NCBI GenBank assembly: GCA_965249555.1
Contig: OZ252243.1
Coordinates: 1,536,001 to 1,600,000, forward strand
DNA length: 64,000 nt
Direction of reading: 5' to 3'
Source of the DNA: Nitrosopumilus sp.
GTDB lineage: Archaea; Thermoproteota; Nitrososphaeria; Nitrososphaerales; Nitrosopumilaceae
Positions 235-48,631 of the stretch are shown in pieces; position 1 is the first letter of the stretch, and every line of letters begins with the position of its first letter. Under the pieces are notes generated by a model. The model worked only from the letters and a program-made list of their open reading frames with translations. It made no database searches and was not told where the DNA came from. The position numbers were made by a program, and so were the translations under genes.

Positions 235-1453
235 ATCTGTATTTTATTGCAGCATCTTCAAGTGCTTGAATCATTGGCAACTTTTCTCCTGTAAGATAAA
301 GTACCAATGCACCACCTGCAGTACTAGTATGATTAATTTTATCTGCTAATCCTTGTTTTTTTAGTGCACTATTCAAGTGCCCACCGCTAACAATTGTTGT
401 TGCCATAGAGTTTGCAACTGAATTGAGTAATCCTTTTGTCCCAAAGCTGAAATTCTCTTTTTCAAAAAATCCTGCAGGTCCGCTAATAAACACAGTTCCT
501 GCACCTGAAATTAATTTTGAATAATACTCTACAGTCTTTGGACCCAAATCATAAATTTTATCACCTTTACCCGTCTCTCTTACATCCATCTCAACTCTTT
601 CTCCATCTTTGTCAATTGCAATATCTATCGGTGTGGCAAAAACATCAGGATATTCACCAATCAATGCATGAGCTTTTGCTACGACCTCGTCTTCTCTTTT
701 GATACCAAGAGAAGATTTGATCTTGCCTTGTGCACGCATAAACACATTAGCAATCAATCCTGTTAATAGAACATGGTCAGCACGACCATTTTGAATCAAT
801 AATTTGATTGCCTCGAGTCTATCTGGTATTTTTGAGCCTCCAAGAACAATCACATGTGGTGCTTTGGCAACAGTCATTATCTCATCTAAATTTCTAACTT
901 CTTTTTCAACAATTCTTCCTGCACATGCAGGCAAAACTTGTGAAAAACCAACAATTGATGGATGTGTTCTATGAGCACTTGGAAACGAATCCAATACACA
1001 AAGATCAAATAATTTGGATAAACGACTAACCATAATTGTTTTAGCAGAATTTTCTGGTGTAAATTCGTAATTTTCTTCAGCACATAATCGAAGATTATCT
1101 AAAAGTAGAATGTCTCCATCCTCTAGATTCTTGATGGCATTTTGTGCAGCTTCGCCAATTACATCTTCAACATATTTTATTTTTTTATTCATAAATTTTT
1201 CAAGAACTTTTGCATGTTTGTCCATTCCAGTATAGTCTTTATTTCCAACTCTACCTTGGTGTGATGCGATAACTACCTTGGCGTCTTTTAATGACTTTAA
1301 AGTTTCAGTGGCTTCTTCAATTCTTTTAGTACCTATAATTCCCATTGTTTCTGGATCGATTGGACAATTCATGTCAACTCTCAAAAAAACAGTCTTACCT
1401 TTCAGGTCAAAATCATCTAATGTGAGCACCTTCACGATTTTTCTATTATGCAC
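206..1453 (-). CDS. pgk: Phosphoglycerate kinase
   Basis: Motifs LRVDMNCP, SHQGR, LLDNLR and STAGGA; the true start may be GTG at 1435. Confidence 0.96.
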   Translation of the reverse strand: MHNRKIVKVLTLDDFDLKGKTVFLRVDMNCPIDPETMGIIGTKRIEEATETLKSLKDAKVVIASHQGRVGNKDYTGMDKHAKVLEKFMNKKIKYVEDVIGEAAQNAIKNLEDGDILLLDNLRLCAEENYEFTPENSAKTIMVSRLSKLFDLCVLDSFPSAHRTHPSIVGFSQVLPACAGRIVEKEVRNLDEIMTVAKAPHVIVLGGSKIPDRLEAIKLLIQNGRADHVLLTGLIANVFMRAQGKIKSSLGIKREDEVVAKAHALIGEYPDVFATPIDIAIDKDGERVEMDVRETGKGDKIYDLGPKTVEYYSKLISGAGTVFISGPAGFFEKENFSFGTKGLLNSVANSMATTIVSGGHLNSALKKQGLADKINHTSTAGGALVLYLTGEKLPMIQALEDAAIKYRSKQKIYKKD

Positions 1454-18691: not shown

Positions 18692-19768
18692 ATGAAATCT
18701 GCTAGAATCACAGGCCCAAATGAGCCTCTTGTTGTATCAGAATTTGAGACCCCTGCCCCTCAAGGAAATCAGGTTCTAGTTAAAGTAAAATCTGTAGGTG
18801 TTTGTCATAGTGATTTACACTTGTGGGAAGGTGGATATGATCTTGGGGATGGACAATTTATGAAAGTTACAGATAGAGGTGTAAAATACCCTGTAACTCC
18901 TGGGCATGAAATTGCTGGCACTGTTGAAGAAATTGGTGATAGTGTTTCTGGAATATCAAAAGGAGATAAAGTCCTAGTCTTTCCTTGGATAGGTTGTGGA
19001 GAATGTCCTGCATGTAAAGTGGGAAATGAAAATCTATGTGATACTCCTAAATCAATGGGTGTTTTTCAAGATGGTGGATATTCTGATTATGCTTTAGTTC
19101 CTAATTTCAAATATCTGGCAAAACTTGATGGTGTTGATCTAGACTCTGCAACTTCGCTTGCTTGTTCTGGACTTACCGCATACAATGCTGTCAAAAAAGC
19201 AAATGCTAATTCCCCAGAATTTCTGTTGATAATTGGAGCTGGTGGTTTAGGGTTGATGGCAATTCAAATCGCAAAAGCAGTAACTAAAGCTAAAATCATT
19301 TGTATTGATAATGATGACAAAAAATTTGAAACTGCCAAAAAGATGGGTGCAGATTTTGTTGTAAATACTAATGTAGTTGGATCTGTGTCTTCTGGAACCG
19401 GAAGTTCCACCGAAAAAATTATTTCTATTTGTAATGGTAAAGGACCTGACAGTATTATCGACTTTGTAAATGCTCCTCAAACTGTGAAAACAGCATTGGC
19501 AGTTTTACGAAAAAGAGGAAATCTTATACTTGTTGGACTTTTTGGAGGCTCTCTTGAATTATCCCTTGTGACCATCCCTCTCAAATCCATTACTATTCAG
19601 GGTGCTTATACTGGTAACTATGATGACATGGTTGAATTAATAGAGTTGGCAAAAAAAGGTGTAATAAAACCAGTCATATCAAAAAGATATGCCCTCGATG
19701 AGGCAAACACTGCCTTGGAAGATCTCAAAGCACGAAAAATTATCGGTCGTGCTGTGATAAATCCATAG
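18692..19768 (+). CDS. Zn-dependent alcohol dehydrogenase
   Basis: GVCHSD, GHE, CGECPACKVGNENLC and GAGGLG. Confidence 0.95.
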   Translation: MKSARITGPNEPLVVSEFETPAPQGNQVLVKVKSVGVCHSDLHLWEGGYDLGDGQFMKVTDRGVKYPVTPGHEIAGTVEEIGDSVSGISKGDKVLVFPWIGCGECPACKVGNENLCDTPKSMGVFQDGGYSDYALVPNFKYLAKLDGVDLDSATSLACSGLTAYNAVKKANANSPEFLLIIGAGGLGLMAIQIAKAVTKAKIICIDNDDKKFETAKKMGADFVVNTNVVGSVSSGTGSSTEKIISICNGKGPDSIIDFVNAPQTVKTALAVLRKRGNLILVGLFGGSLELSLVTIPLKSITIQGAYTGNYDDMVELIELAKKGVIKPVISKRYALDEANTALEDLKARKIIGRAVINP

Positions 19769-19838
19769 TTTGATTTATCATTACAAAATCTTATAAAATA
19801 AAAACATCAAATATTGATTTCAAACGTAAATTGTGAAA

Positions 19839-19894
19839 TTGCAGTTACCCATCTTAAAAACAAGCAATTCATTACTGCTAGGTTATTCTGAAAT
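19839..19894 (+). pseudogene. 5' fragment of the response regulator that continues at 22922
   Basis: TTG start, MQLPIL...SLLLGYSEI, which joins in frame to SEIYLFENGK at 22922 through the repeat ATTCTGAAAT. Confidence 0.7.
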
Positions 19895-20656
19895 AGAATG
19901 ATTCCATTCTTTCATCAAATCGTACTATAGTATTTGCAGCATCTATCATTGCGTTACGTAACCATGCAGAACCCCTCTTTGTTATTCCGCCTCCCCTGTG
20001 CACATCTGCGCTGTCCCTGTGCGATGGTGCAAGTCCTGCATATGAGACCAGTTTTTCTGCTGTTGCAAATCTGCTGTTGCAAATCTGCTGTTGCAAATCT
20101 GCTGATGTCAACTATCTCTGAAATTATTGTCAATGCCGTGACATAGTTTATTCCAGGAATGGTCACTAGTCTTGTTTTCCCATCCTCATTGCTGCCATCT
20201 TTGTCTCAATTGTGCTGATCTGTTTTTGCGGCATATCTATGGTGTCAAGATATGCATCCATTGCCATTCTGTCAACCTCACTCAGATTAATTTCATGCAA
20301 CCATCGTACTCCTTTCTGCGAGAATGTCTTTGTGGGTGTAATCATATTTTGCAAGTATTGCATAAATCATGTTTTTGTGTCTTGAGACACTTTGCACGCG
20401 ATTCAGTCTGGTTCTTACCAGACTGTATAGTCTATATGGTATTTTTCTGGTACAAATGATTCATACACCATGTCTGCTCTTAGCAAGTCTGCCAATACGT
20501 CTGAATCAAGTTTGTCGTTTTTTAGCTTTGCCTGTGCAATTATCTTACTTCTTTCTGGATTCCCGTTTTATTGTTGCAACACATTTTATTTTGTGAACAT
20601 CAATTCCTATACTGATAACTATATGTGAATACAAAAAGAAGTAATTCAGATAGCAT
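19885..20656 (-). pseudogene. IS110-family transposase (type 1), N-terminal and middle part with element left end; frameshifted and deleted
   Basis: IGIDVHK, KNDKLDSDVLA, TIPGI and YAGLAPS...GITKRGS motifs in several frames; left end AT-GCTATC-TGAATT at 20656-20643. Confidence 0.9.
20057..20104 (+). repeat. 14-bp unit triplicated, frameshifting the transposase
   Basis: (CTGCTGTTGCAAAT)x3 followed by CTGCTG. Confidence 0.95.
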
Positions 20657-20810
20657 AGGAAATGAACCCAAGTCCAGGAGTCGTAATCCATCATCCCCAT
20701 GGAAAATTTGCATCTCAGTATTGTGTAACAGGCACGAATTTCAATTCATAGAAGATCCGTATTTCTGTATCCCCTATAAATTTACAGAACCTTATTTGAG
20801 AATCAAAAAA

Positions 20811-22214
20811 CTATTTCCAAATTGTAACAATAGTTGATTTTTCCACGTTATTTCCCTTGCTATCAAATCCTTTGGCAGATATTTTGTAAAGACCTTCAGA
20901 GGCGGCATCGCCGTCATTTTTTATTTGATTCCATGAAAATTCTACCTTCTCTCCAGGTTCCAGATGGGACTCTGCCTGCATACTCATAGGCCTATATATG
21001 ACTATTCCAGACAGGTCAGTGATCATAAGACCATGCGATGAACTAGAAAAAGTCAGCAGAGTGGTTCCAGAATTTGCAATTTGAATTTTTATCTTCTCAT
21101 TTTGCTTAAAAACAGATTTTTCAGTAACTATAGAAATTGAAGAGCCCTCGACAAAAATTTGAGCGGGGACATCACCATCACTTGGAATTGACGGGGTGAC
21201 CTTATGATGAGGCATTATATGGGAATTCGCATAATCTACATAAGGGACAAATTGTTCATCTGGTTCCAAATCTTCAAGCTCTCTAGCTTGGGCCCTACTT
21301 GGCTCAAATTCAGACAAAGTAACAATGCCGTCATCAATGGATGTGTATACCCTAGCAGCATTATCAGCGTATGGTTGTAGTGTAGTCGCATGTACTGTAA
21401 AAGATCCAGAATCATATTTGAGATAATCAAGATTTTCTCTATCATGTATATCTGAGGCAAGATATATGACAGGTTCGTTGATAGTCATTTGGAAAGTTGT
21501 TGGGTTGCCATCAAAAGTCAATCCAGTCAAGTTGTGAGAATAGACCTCAAATGGCGGATAATAATGCTCAAGGATTGTCTTTCCATAGTAAGACAGATCA
21601 GTACCAGAAAGATCGTAATTTGCATGAGATTTAATAGAGTATATCTCCCAATCAGCAATATAACAGAATGTATCCCATAATTCTCGGGCATTGTCAAACT
21701 CTGTTCTATATGTTTCATTATAATCATCTAGTTGTTGCTGTGTCAGTTCAAATGAGGATGTTACAGTAACATCAAAAGTCTGACCAATTTGAACCCTGTC
21801 AGGTACCTGTAATGATATGGAACTTGGCAAGACGCATATCGGTATGGGATTTCCAGCGCCATATAGTTCTCCAACACCAGCTGTGGAATTATCAAATGTG
21901 TCTAGTGAGTTTGATTGTATAGTTATTGTTTTAGATTCCATACCATTTGATTTTAAATCAGACGCATTACTGACTGTCTCAACTTTGACAAATCCCATGT
22001 CTGATAATTTTTCAACAGAACCTTCATTTACACAAGCTGGAGTGTTTCGTGGCGATTCCATCAATACTTTATCATCACTGCATTGGATTTCATCTATTGG
22101 TATTCCCGAACTGTATTGTTTGAATGGTGATAAGATTTTTGTCTCTGCAAGTGCAGGCATTATGCCTATTACGACTGTTATGACTAACAGTCCAAGCAGG
22201 GTCATTTTAATCAT
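20811..22214 (-). CDS. Secreted multidomain protein (signal peptide, SPxKQ...EIQC module, unknown middle, C-terminal Ig/BsuPI-like domain)
   Basis: Probable start ATG 22214 (MIKMTLLGLLVITVVIGIMPALA) with TTAATA about 27 nt upstream; the track start 22289 lies inside the IS end. Confidence 0.8.
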   Translation of the reverse strand: MIKMTLLGLLVITVVIGIMPALAETKILSPFKQYSSGIPIDEIQCSDDKVLMESPRNTPACVNEGSVEKLSDMGFVKVETVSNASDLKSNGMESKTITIQSNSLDTFDNSTAGVGELYGAGNPIPICVLPSSISLQVPDRVQIGQTFDVTVTSSFELTQQQLDDYNETYRTEFDNARELWDTFCYIADWEIYSIKSHANYDLSGTDLSYYGKTILEHYYPPFEVYSHNLTGLTFDGNPTTFQMTINEPVIYLASDIHDRENLDYLKYDSGSFTVHATTLQPYADNAARVYTSIDDGIVTLSEFEPSRAQARELEDLEPDEQFVPYVDYANSHIMPHHKVTPSIPSDGDVPAQIFVEGSSISIVTEKSVFKQNEKIKIQIANSGTTLLTFSSSSHGLMITDLSGIVIYRPMSMQAESHLEPGEKVEFSWNQIKNDGDAASEGLYKISAKGFDSKGNNVEKSTIVTIWK

Positions 22215-22283
22215 CAATCCGTTTGGCAAATCATTTCTATTAAGTAGTATCCAGCTTGGTTGATGGAAATGTTTCAAAGTTTG

Positions 22284-22931
22284 ATCCATGTGAATTGTTT
22301 TTATACATTTCCTACTTTTTTGCGTCCCGAGGCATAGCCTTCGCTAGGACATATTCGCAGTTATCAACCGAGGCTTGTCCCTCAACATATAAAACGCGAC
22401 TTGCAGTCCTAACTGTAATTCTGTACAAATTCTCTTCTCTCTTTTAGCATCCAGTAAATCACTCGCAGGATATTTGATGATGCAGCAACTATATCTTTTG
22501 ATGAGCCTCTCTTCTTTTTAATGCGATTGTAAAATTTTGTAATGTCACTGTTCTTGGCATGTATTGTATGAGAATGAACGCATTGGATAAGGATCCATCG
22601 TACCGTCATGCTTCCCCTTTTGGTTATACGGTCATGGTGTAACCGTGTCTGCAGAATTTCTAACTGATGGCACGACTCCGACATATGCGCATAACCTGTG
22701 AGAGTCATTGAATCTCCCATACGAAATCGTCTCCAACCCTACTGAGGATACTTACTAGCATGCTTTGCTGAATCAGGACATCTCAGATATGCCTTGCATC
22801 TTATACTTTCGCTGTGTCAGTTCATGATTTTGTGTATAATACACTTTCAGAGTTAGCATGTGCCCGGATTGTTGCAAGCATCCTGTCTTGCAGCTGCCAC
22901 CTTTGTTTTCTCCTCTTTGCAATTCTGAAAT
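22284..22931 (-). mobile_element. IS110/IS1111 remnant copy A (type-1 C-terminus, type-2 C-terminus, ncRNA region, right end)
   Basis: FRIAKRR..VAAARQ fragment, then GRFND...RITKRGS...KERREFVQNYS*, then a tail ending AATTCACATGG-AT. Confidence 0.88.
22310..22411 (-). ncRNA. Bridge/seek-RNA-like region, copy A (donor loop deleted)
   Basis: Colinear with copies B and C except for a deletion between TCCT and AGCGAAGG; ends approximate. Confidence 0.55.
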
Positions 22932-23238
22932 CTATCTTTTTGAGAATGGAAAGGACGCTGTAAAAGGATGTAAGAAACTATTTTCTAAAAACAAAGAACC
23001 TGTGGTTCTTCTTGATATGGGACTGCCTGATCTTGAAGGTGATGTTGTTGCAACAAAATTACTCGAGGATAAATTGAATTTACAGATTGCAGTTATCACT
23101 GCTGATGAAAAAACAACCACACGTGTTAACAAAACAATCAGTACTGGCGTATCCGCATTTATTCAAAAACCATTTACACTTGATAAAGTCAAAAAAGCAC
23201 TAGATATTGCAGAATCTGAATATTCTTTATTACAATAA
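22922..23238 (+). pseudogene. CheY-like response regulator receiver, 3' part, interrupted by the insertion
   Basis: VVLLDMGLPD, VITA and FIQKPF receiver motifs; N-terminus missing here. Confidence 0.85.
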
Positions 23239-23728
23239 AAGCAAAGACATGTTTAGTATATTGGCATCTTTGATGTCAATCTCATTGATTCTATAATCAA
23301 TTATCTCTTCTGAAAACTTTTCTACAATTTTCTGTGATGTGTTTGCTTTTTCAGAATCGACTTGAATGATTACTAACATGTTCCATTCTCCTTCCATGTT
23401 TGCTACTAGAAGATAATTATCCAATTTTGTAATGAACTCTCTGATAGAATCTTTTACTGCTTCAAGGGACTGATGGTTTTAGTTTCATCAATATTGCTTG
23501 ATACTTGTTAATTCCAGATACATCTGTCAGAACCGCTTTATACCCTTTAATGATTCCACTTTTCTCAAGTCGTTCCATTCTTCTTCTGATTGTTCTATCT
23601 GAAACATCATGACCTGATTTTGTTAGTTCTGATGCAATTTCTTTTGATGGTGTTCTAGCATTGTTGTTGAGAATCTCAATAATCTTTTGATCAACTTTGT
23701 CTAGATTTGACCATGCATCTTCACTCAT
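23230..23728 (-). pseudogene. Lrp/AsnC regulator split by a frameshift near 23462
   Basis: HTH part LDKVDQKII...RRRMERLEKSGIIKGY, then the RAM part AVKDSIREFITKLDNY...EGEWNML in another frame. Confidence 0.8.
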
Positions 23729-23797
23729 ACTACACAAAAGTTCTAATGCTTTTTGTATTTTTGGTTGAATTTTGCCCACATACCATTTAGGGTTGGC

Positions 23798-28028: not shown

Positions 28029-28395
28029 ATCCATGTGAATTGTTTTTATACATTTCCCACTTTTTTGCATCCCAAGGCATAGCCTTCGCTATGGAATGCT
28101 TTCAAACAAAAGATGACGGACATGTATCCATACGAGGTCTGTTCCTCAATGCTATCTTCATCCCTTTGTCAGGATTATTCGCAGTTATTACCCGAGGCTT
28201 GTCCCTCAACATCTAACACGCGACTTGCAGTCCTAACTGTAATTCTGTACAAATTCTCTCCTCTCTTTTAGCATCCAGTAAATCACTCGCAGGATCTTTG
28301 ATGATGTGGCAACTGCGGCCTTTGATGAACCTCTCTTCTTTTTAATGCGATTGTAAAATTTTGTAATGTCACTGTTCTTGGCATGTATTGTATGA
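28029..28395 (-). mobile_element. IS110/IS1111 remnant copy B (type-2 C-terminus, ncRNA region, right end)
   Basis: KNSDITKFYNRIKKKRGSSKAAVA...QNYS* followed by the shared tail ending AATTCACATGG-AT. Confidence 0.88.
28050..28235 (-). ncRNA. Bridge/seek-RNA-like region, copy B
   Basis: Two internal-loop domains, each capped by a GAGG-N6-CCTC hairpin; ends approximate. Confidence 0.65.
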
Positions 28396-48041: not shown

Positions 48042-48631
48042 GGCATATCTGAGATGTCCTGATTCAGCAAAACACACTAGGAGGTGTCCTCAGTAGGGTT
48101 GGAGACGATTTCGTATGGGAGATTCAATGACTCTCACAAGTTATGCGCATATGCAGGAGTCGTGCCATCAGTTAGAAACTCTGCAGACACGGTTACACCA
48201 TGGTCGTATAACCAAAAGGGGAAGCATGACACTACGATGGGTTCTTACCCAATGTGTCCATGCCCATGCACTACATGTCAAGAACAGTGACATTACAAAA
48301 TTTTACAATCGCATTAAAAAGAAGAGAGGTTCATCAAAAGATATAGTTGCTGCATCATCAAAGATCCTGCGAGTGATTTACTGGATGCTAAAAGAGAGGA
48401 GAGAATTTGTACAGAATTACAGTTAGGACTGCAAGTCGCGTAATGATTTTTGAGGAACAAGCCTCGTCAACTAACTGCGGATAGATCCTAACGAAGGGAT
48501 GAAGATAGCATTGAGGTTAAAGCCTCGTATGGATACATGTCCGTCATCTTTTGATTGAAAACCTTCTCTAGCGAAAGATATGCCTTGGGATGCCAAAAAG
48601 TGGGAAATGTATAAAAACAATTCACATGGAT
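48042..48631 (+). mobile_element. IS110/IS1111 remnant copy C
   Basis: Homologous to copy A from GGCATATCTGAGATG; frameshifted YAGVVPSVRNSA / GRITKRGS fragment; right end AATTCACATGG-AT at 48631. Confidence 0.9.
48424..48600 (+). ncRNA. Bridge/seek-RNA-like region, copy C
   Basis: Same two-domain scaffold as copy B; AGATAGCAT at 48503-48511 and ATGGAT at 48529-48534. Confidence 0.65.

Follow-up and report, generated by a model that had tools for sequence, protein, structure and literature searches.

The DNA analysed here (the window) is a stretch of 64,000 nucleotides, bases 1536001-1600000 of the single-contig 2.23-Mb genome of a Nitrosopumilus sp., which is AT-rich and carries many insertion sequences (IS). 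Between a zinc-type alcohol dehydrogenase gene (adh, 18692-19768) and the gene of an AsnC-type regulator lies a response-regulator gene interrupted by a 3,027-bp insert. Two copies of the 10-mer ATTCTGAAAT, at 19885-19894 and 22922-22931, bound the insert, as the first-pass annotation had stated and a sequence search bears out. The insert consists of pieces of two different elements of the IS110 family, here called ISx and ISy, and of a gene for a secreted protein (the cargo). Its ISx is permuted around an 8-mer in the transposase gene, M1, at which other rearrangements of this genome are broken as well. To sort unique from repeated DNA, window positions 19701-23300 were compared with the whole genome by blastn; consensus sequences were built for ISx (1,283 bp) and ISy (1,327 bp) and mapped on the genome; and the eight orthologous adh-regulator loci of relatives (L002-L009) were used for comparison. 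The features of the locus are the following.

18692-19768, plus strand: gene of a zinc-type alcohol dehydrogenase, conserved upstream of the regulator (open reading frame, ORF; Pfam ADH_N and ADH_zinc_N)
19811-19879, plus strand: 5' remnant of the regulator pseudogene, its start region minus 6 bp, then NCEIAVTHLKNKQFITA at 19829-19879 (DNA alignment with L002-L009)
19879-19894, plus strand: 16 native nucleotides of the regulator (codons L-G-Y-S-E-I) ending in the left 10-mer, matching TTAGGTTATTCTGAAGT in L002 and ...TATTCTGAAAT in L006
19885-20546, minus strand: body of ISx, positions 447-1073, with the transposase middle and Transposase_20 (blastn; PF02371 on 19878-20111)
20548-20616, minus strand: ISx positions 195-263, the transposase start, ISIGIDVHK... 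(alignment of copies, genome mapping)
20617-20706, plus strand: left-end fragment of ISy (positions 1-90), opposite in orientation to the ISy 3' part (genome mapping)
20707-20810, no strand assigned: 3' flank of the cargo (104 bp), forming junction J3 with the truncated ISy left end at 20706/20707 (blastn, contigs)
20811-22289, minus strand: gene for a secreted or membrane-anchored protein, an intact ORF (ORF list; NCBIfam WING-49)
22286-22715, minus strand: 3' part of ISy, positions 819-1195 and 1265-1327 (blastn; weak Pfam PF02371)
22716-22931, minus strand: tail of ISx, positions 1064-1283, with the last ~35 codons, the 3' non-coding region and the intact right end, CCCATACG... at 22716 (blastn, alignment)
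22924-23238, plus strand: 3' part of the regulator pseudogene (SEIYLFENGK...SLLQ*), receiver profile positions 26-110 (Pfam PF00072)

The DNA outside both copies of the 10-mer is single-copy in this genome, and the DNA immediately within them belongs to the ISx repeat family. At 16 other loci, matches to 22707/22715-22931 abut matches to 19885-20546 with an overlap of 10 nucleotides, so that 16 of the 23 ISx copies are continuous across the motif. Since both window parts are contiguous around a single 10-mer in these 16 copies, the ISx of the window is circularly permuted, and joining the inner ends does restore a continuous IS, as had been claimed. It had also been asked whether the two transposase halves derive from different IS. 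The halves that meet at the 10-mer are both ISx, each about 5% from the consensus, and are of the same family; the C-terminal ORF beside what had been called an ncRNA region is ISy, a different element. Single-nucleotide differences between the window ISx and the other copies are star-like (4.8-6.5% for the body, 2.8-7.5% for the tail), which fits an origin from one copy as well as from two. The 10-mer is present 56 times in the genome, so its native occurrence in a regulator gene is unremarkable. Because it is native to both ISx and the regulator gene, and lies within uninterrupted ISx in 16 copies, a target-site duplication made by a staggered-cut transposase is ruled out.

On the minus strand, the insert reads ISx 1064-1283, ISy 819-1195 and 1265-1327, the cargo, an inverted ISy 1-90, and ISx 195-263 and 447-1073. 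The ISx tail opens with the right-hand 10-mer and interrupts ISy at 818/819, behind the core CT (22714-22715); this junction is that of a canonical ISx insertion, and the same junction exists at five other loci. In the ISy 3' part, about 69 bp of the 3' non-coding region are deleted and a remnant of the transposase C-terminus is left (22409-22720); its right-end terminus adjoins the promoter region of the cargo. On the other side of the cargo, the terminus of ISy 1-90 adjoins the ISx start-codon region (CTGAT/AACTATATG). The ISx body is frameshifted, contains an expanded 14-bp tandem repeat and ends in M1 (minus-strand TTTCAGAAT); a deletion at 20546/20548 has removed ISx 264-446 (183 bp), and the insert lacks the left end, ISx 1-194 (194 bp), with its bridge-RNA-like region. 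The first-pass annotation had placed the cargo between the right and left ends of one IS. Instead, it is bounded by the ISy right end and by the inverted ISy 1-90: the "right end-AT" and "AT-left end" of that annotation are ISy ends, the second of which points the wrong way for a circle junction. A single IS with cargo between its ends, whether an IS-plus-cargo circle or a translocatable unit, is rejected on this anatomy, ISx 1-194 being absent and the cargo being flanked by ISy pieces.

Several observations concern the same repeats elsewhere. The window ISx has three repeats of the 14-bp unit (TGCTGTTGCAAATC-like, window 20050-20105), against two in one other copy and a single one in all remaining copies. 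The window contains another piece of ISy (ISy 962-1327, minus strand) at 28031-28395. The module formed by the ISx tail and ISy 819-1327 is found at six places with six different downstream flanks (window 22286-22931 and 48042-48629; genome 56614-57565, 1838995-1839577, 2075040-2075681 and 2219453-2220174), and its 5' boundary varies (ISx 869/879, 1064, 1065, 1145, 1206 and 1206). The module looks as if it had been repeatedly mobilised through the ISy right end. The genome has a single left half that matches, ISy 3-821 joined to ISx 1-1283, at 1237882-1239980; this junction fits one prediction for a donor scar and has no sequence overlap with the pieces in the window. A 78-bp fragment of the ISx right end (1206-1283) recurs seven times. 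Seven copies of ISx 1-136 run on into a different repeat (92149, 373195, 547111, 1498340, 1867481, 1913914 and 2109975), and the common left flank of five of them indicates that this composite was amplified. An ORF in that repeat, at 92282-92755, presumably resembles the N-terminus of an IS5-type transposase.

What the interrupted gene looked like can be read from its relatives. With the C-terminal 104 residues as query, matches were found in 16 of 41 genomes, eight of them orthologous. These eight are open frames of 251-266 aa, all behind the same adh gene, and the adh 3' end and the intergenic spacer align in 8/8 loci; an intact regulator after adh in relatives, as the first-pass annotation had supposed, is a fact. 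The 3' part in the window is 82-86% identical to the eight orthologs. In the L002 ortholog, the receiver domain occupies residues 129-244 after a TPR-like N-domain. The window sequences TAGGTTATTCTGAAAT (19879-19894) and ATTCTGAAATCTATC... match the ortholog codons KLGYSEI(Y/H)VFENG; the exact 10-mer is native in L006, and orthologs read TTAGGTTATTCTGAA(A/G)T at the corresponding position. Judged against the orthologs, the local empty site for the insertion is real.

The gene had, in addition, lost more than its continuity. In the orthologs, the codons found at 19879-19894 (KLGYSEI) lie about 126 codons further on than the N-terminal remnant. Since the orthologs are 251-266 aa long and the window lacks the stretch left of the 10-mer, about 380 bp are missing; they were deleted separately, up to 6-7 nt left of the 10-mer, and a further 6 bp were lost in the start region. 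The receiver domain is incomplete: the window keeps profile positions 26-110, and the orthologs have 1-110 after an N-domain of about 125 aa. To judge from these alignments, the regulator gene is dead and excision of the insert would not restore it. The first-pass statement that the joined outer flanks restore a receiver gene (MQLPILKTSNSLLLGYSEI...) fails on the ~380-bp deletion. The N-terminus it gave, MQLPILKTSNSLLL (MQLPIL…), is in the wrong frame, the true one (NCEIAVTHLKNKQFITA) being read in another frame at 19829-19879; the DNA of 19839-19884 does align with ortholog N-termini, only in that different frame.

The cargo gene is the sole intact ORF in the mosaic, with ISy inserted about 70 bp upstream. 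It encodes 492 aa from the first ATG, and a likely start, MIKM at 22214, gives 467 aa. The protein is itself a mosaic made of a signal-peptide-like N-terminus, a WING-49 domain (residues 30-76; NCBIfam, 9e-14), a unique middle and a conserved C-terminal Ig-like domain of 116 aa, with a weak FlgD_ig match near the C-terminus. Its first ~100 residues match paralogous secreted proteins; its last 116 match a protein of about 150 aa in 22 of 24 genomes of the genus, with 56-69% identity (45% in one match). No full-length relative was found in the genomes of 40 relatives. The 3' flank of the gene contains a 70-bp repeat (20727-20796), of which the genome has three other partial copies. The cargo is a mosaic specific to this lineage, and its association with the IS pieces may be incidental.

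Both elements have the two domains of IS110 transposases. In ISx they are present in pieces, PF01548 on an N-terminal ORF (1.3e-17) and PF02371 on window 19878-20111 (1.1e-16). ISy scores 6.9e-25 and 7.2e-21 for the same two profiles and 224.6 bits for the NCBIfam "IS110 family RNA-guided transposase" (cut-off 140); three copies in the genome have intact frames of 373 aa, and the window has ISy fragments only. All 35 matches of a genome search with PF01548 lie at ISx or ISy coordinates. The core AG precedes the ISx left end in 23 of the 23 listed copies; on the other side, the copies shown have AG after the right end, except for one that has AA. The insertion of ISx at ISy 818/819, found at six loci, made no target-site duplication. 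Among relatives, ISx is present in 8 of 61 genomes, its own included, with at most 80% identity (six candidates per genome were scored).

The 5' region of ISx appears to encode a bridge RNA. RNAalifold, applied to 13 distinct left ends, predicts two modules of stem and internal loop, and most of the variable columns belong to the two sides of the first loop. These sides read as "left target + AG" and as the reverse complement of "AG + right target", and they make 11 variant guide pairs. In 7 of the 23 ISx copies, the left guide agrees with the flank of that copy in 6/7 positions. The second loop contains AUGGGAG, that is, the right-end terminus plus the core; a right-donor guide was sought in the 5' RNA and was not identified, and an Rfam scan of ISx and ISy gave no match. 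ISx is probably a bridge-RNA-type IS110 element. The variation of the guides among the 23 left ends (e.g. L023:101-300), often equal to the copies' own flanks, suggests that bridge RNAs were naturally reprogrammed within one archaeal genome.

The recurrence of the breakpoint carries the interpretation. M1, the 8-mer TTTCAGAA at ISx 1065-1072, occurs 443 times in the genome. At 23 of these occurrences, ISx is present on at least one side: 16 are continuous and seven are junctions broken in this same 8-mer. ISx lies to the left only at 87100 and at window 19885-19894, and to the right only at 90191, 1190277, 2219453, 2221800 and window 22922-22931. The pair 87100/90191 mirrors the event in the window: ISx 81-1072, 3,083 bp of unique DNA and ISx 1065-1283 follow one another, and TTTCAGAA is duplicated (8 bp). 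The insert of this mirror locus (genome 86106-90421, L025) has genes for a secreted protein of 263 aa, a membrane protein of 157 aa and a Dam-like methyltransferase (PF05869, a sub-threshold match at 5e-06); among 60 genomes of the genus, its 3,083 bp were not found beyond matches of at most 92 bp. The junctions at 1190277 and 2221800 have 40-63 nt of left flank in common, whose native partner is intact at 1760316-1760386, reading …CTATTCTTTCAGAAAAACTCG, with TTTCAGAA present natively. The left flank at 2219453 is a different one, and no native copy was found of its 17 nt to the left of M1. Finally, at 2075672 the right flank of M1 follows the left flank of M2, a second, inverted copy of the motif at ISx ~1146; such a hybrid fits what an inversion between M1 and M2 would give. 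On the count of these junctions, at least five independent events in this genome broke at one ISx 8-mer, and no other internal position of ISx, IS-insertion sites apart, shows such reuse.

The partner sites have exactly TTTCAG+AA in common; around it they differ, with A, C, T, C on the left and TAACC, AAACT, AATTG on the right. M1 lies in a palindromic stretch (AGAATG..CATTCT..AGAAT) and forms with M2, 72 bp apart, a 10-bp inverted repeat. When M1 is read as a heptamer plus core, ATTTCAG-AA, it is 6/7 identical to the flanks of real insertions, ATTTCAC-AG (2018222 and 2134079), and 5/7 identical to the guide GTTTCAC. With the guide pair GTTTCAC/TAACCTT (copy at 1498951), the regulator site, ATTTCAG-AA-TAACCTA, agrees at 11 of 14 flank positions. 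On both strands together, only 3,362 of 4,460,846 genome positions reach 11/14 with any of the 11 guide pairs. M1 is rejected as a canonical ISx target with the core AG, as it scores only 3/7 for the left and 3/7 for the right guide. It has, by eye, no likeness to a donor (right-end/left-end) sequence. Nor is it a site conserved in the family: the four related elements in the alignment (G052, G055 and G058; three species) lack it and have a different codon there, so it would be a fortuitous pseudo-site and not an evolved one. ISy was considered as the source of the enzyme and discarded, its flanks (…AT/AACTATATG and CACATGG/ATACATAC) being unlike TTTCAGAA.

One further feature of the regulator deserves mention here. 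The 380-bp deletion (window 19877-19885 compared with L002) begins directly past seven nucleotides, TAACCTA (minus strand), that match a right-target guide of ISx, and its other end abuts, in the closest ortholog, CCCATAAC, a 6/7 match to CCCATAC, the right-end terminus of ISx. Coincidence may account for this, or a second recombinase event.

We propose the following sequence of events. In the donor, ISx would have been inserted canonically in ISy, the 3' part of which stood beside the secreted-protein gene. A reciprocal, conservative exchange would then have taken place between ATTTCAGAAT in the regulator and the identical M1 sequence inside the ISx transposase gene, a donor closed on itself across M1 being left as a circularly permuted ISx. 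A circular or tandem donor that recombined at the 10-mer is the simplest topology. Most simply, the donor would be a circle excised from a locus with the ISy/cargo segment between two ISx copies in direct orientation, or else a partial circle. The bridge-RNA-guided recombinase of ISx, now extinct, would have taken M1 and its partners as near-cognate half-sites of the "left-target + core" kind. We hold it at evenly balanced confidence that a conservative exchange at a repeatedly used pseudo-site within ISx gave rise to the insert, probably through the element's own guided recombinase and probably via a circle; the circle, the enzyme and the order of the events are what we infer from the permutation and the junctions. 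The wider claim, that an IS110 recombinase used a half-site in its own gene for recombination of the target-target type, capturing foreign cassettes and planting IS-plus-gene circles in chromosomal genes, is a tentative one and rather unlikely. From the first-pass model, the closed or circular topology is retained, as it fits the permutation; one IS110 circle carrying cargo and a chance crossover are not.

A number of points weigh against this proposal. No ISx enzyme survives: all copies are broken, with frames of at most 180 aa, or of 338 aa with a TAG. The guides fit imperfectly: none of the present ones matches M1 fully (two mismatches in seven, and a core AA instead of AG), the 11/14 match of the regulator site was noticed post hoc, and the other partners match a guide on the left only (5/7), their right halves having no guide match. 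No second copy of the cargo and no donor locus were found in the genome, and neither the empty site nor a window-specific circle joint appeared in the contigs of four sequencing runs, from which rare forms are dropped; a single joint of low depth in run X2 (22931>19895, one A added, depth 5.28) is expected from other ISx copies. Three of the five events (the regulator deletion, 2219453 and 2075672) have another breakpoint 6-19 bp away from the motif, a pattern that suits replicative repair with several template switches at least as well. We know of no demonstration that IS110 enzymes recombine two target-like sites. The reactions described in the accessible text of the 2026 preprints cited below are of the donor-donor and half-match types, not target-target.

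Such replicative repair is the alternative that survives best, even if we think it unlikely. A stalled fork, through microhomology-mediated break-induced replication, would have switched from the regulator 10-mer to the M1 of one ISx, copied through ISy and the cargo to the M1 of a second ISx, and switched back, the palindromic M1 region being what stalls forks. The palindromes and the M1/M2 inverted repeat do exist in the sequence, short remnants of a templated kind stand by three junctions (6-7 nt at the regulator, 17 nt each at 2219453 and 2075672), and the partner locus at 1760316 is still intact, as events of the copying type predict. However, the use of the same 8 nt every time and the clean, reciprocal-looking duplications in two events are tighter than is usual for microhomology, a donor with two ISx copies around the cargo is absent from the genome, and the 11/14 guide match of the regulator would be left unexplained.

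The first-pass annotation had seen the insert as an IS-plus-cargo circle, similar to an IS26 unit, integrated by a crossover at 10 bp of microhomology; in this model the crossover is illegitimate, a single event at a chance match. Its topology fits, with a permuted IS and a 10-mer that is native to both partners and common in the genome (56 copies). Nevertheless, we regard it as improbable: a single chance crossover does not sit well with the reuse of the same ISx 8-mer in at least five independent events, the insert is not a single IS with cargo between its ends, and IS26 units need a DDE transposase and a complete IS26, which have no counterpart here.

The history might also have unfolded in situ. 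A composite, ISx-[ISy/cargo]-ISx, would have inserted canonically at a near-cognate target in the regulator and been trimmed by two partial excisions via M1, one between the left junction and the M1 of the first copy, the other between the M1 of the second copy and the right junction. The likeness of the regulator site to a full ISx target (11/14) speaks for this, as do the tail-only and body-only ISx fragments elsewhere in the genome; in the available text, Hu et al. (10.64898/2026.08.14.744561) report IS110 loci with partial excisions whose internal endpoints recur. Such a history would require two independent, precise deletions at one locus, and it meets a core AA in the regulator against the donor core AG. 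It also leaves unexplained the mirror event, where foreign DNA lies within M1 between 8-bp duplications. It has, in our estimation, little chance of being right.

That repeats were mis-joined during assembly is scarcely credible: ISx and ISy have dozens of copies and the source runs are not independent, but contigs of three runs (two samples) span both regulator/ISx junctions, J3 and the cargo/ISy joint at the depth of the flanks, and the 10-nt overlap is far below assembler word sizes. This check was made on the contigs of the four runs mentioned above; 76-88% of the sampled words are present in three runs of one study (two samples), and these runs, which contain the locus, are probably the assembly's own source. 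No RNA run was among those listed as containing the stretch. The contigs span the left junction (19600-19914), the right junction (22876/22883-23400), J3 with the cargo (20663-22057) and the cargo/ISy joint (22109-22309/22310), and the depth of the junction contigs equals that of the unique flanks (X1: 6,500 / 6,325 / 6,119). Beyond the right junction, the AsnC/Lrp-type regulator gene (window 23230-23779, minus strand) is seemingly split into a 105-aa HTH ORF and a separate ORF of 64 aa, and may be frameshifted.

Canonical elements of the IS110/IS621 type encode a DEDD plus Transposase_20 recombinase, have a 5' RNA with two internal loops, and carry the core dinucleotide at both ends. ISx resembles them in its domains, in the two loops predicted for its 5' RNA, in its cores, in the absence of target duplication and in its site-specific insertion at ISy 818/819. 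The regulator junctions, in contrast, are not IS ends, and the right-end/left-end donor junction was not used. An IS26 unit is a circle of one complete IS and adjacent DNA that is moved by a DDE transposase and either targets another IS26 or makes 8-bp duplications. A circular unit of IS plus adjacent DNA, which may integrate conservatively, is what the two cases would have in common; family and chemistry differ, and ISx is incomplete and split internally. In integrases of the SSV1 type, attP lies inside the integrase gene and integration splits the gene into two flanking pieces. The insert shares with them a gene of the element split into two flanking pieces. This likeness is topological only, since M1 is not conserved in the relatives of ISx, so that no evolved att site exists, and there is no tyrosine integrase. 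Piv and the IS492 enzyme, DEDD recombinases related to IS110, carry out conservative inversion or excision at short sites.

The closest parallels come from bacterial IS110 elements, and they limit what is new here. As far as the accessible text of the preprint goes, cargo-bearing expanded loci, partial circles, recurrent internal endpoints that lack conventional guide matches, and reintegration of partial fragments have been described by Hu et al. (bioRxiv 2026, 10.64898/2026.08.14.744561), and half-match recombination by Xie et al. (bioRxiv 2026, 10.64898/2026.08.31.748434). The modular circles of ISPpu9 (10.1101/2025.01.17.633520) and a second pathway (10.1101/2025.10.25.684509), from texts available in part likewise, give further context. 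Cargo capture, partial circles and recurrent internal endpoints are, by these accounts, already known for IS110, and what we describe is an archaeal variant. It has in common with the expanded loci and partial circles, as they are presented in those portions, the gain of cargo, non-random internal endpoints, one-sided matches with an identical core, the reintegration of fragments, and inversions and tandem structures. The reported cases, on the other hand, are bacterial and concern half-matches at donor ends (LD/RD) and circle junctions, whereas here, in an archaeon, the site lies inside the transposase ORF, and a half-site resembling a left target exchanges with identical chromosomal or foreign 8-10-mers to give a permuted IS; the circles are proposed here, not observed. 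In the accessible text of these preprints, we found no description of an exchange between an internal site of the transposase ORF and identical chromosomal sites.

What the finding means depends on how the hot spot arose. The first-pass annotation had seen in the insert a general route by which IS110 elements move surface-protein genes in archaea; this generality lacks support, as it rests on the event in the window and one mirror event. If palindrome-driven template switching were all that happened, the locus would be a tidy but ordinary case of IS-associated genome decay. If the hot spot was enzyme-driven, it would provide five natural examples, with their partner sites, of an IS110-type recombinase acting off its canonical ends, which would bear on the off-target and half-match behaviour of bridge recombinases used as genome-editing tools, and it would show ordinary genes being picked up and relocated in an IS-rich archaeal genome. 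Half-site recombination, if true, would be a route of gene shuffling apart from canonical end-to-end transposition.

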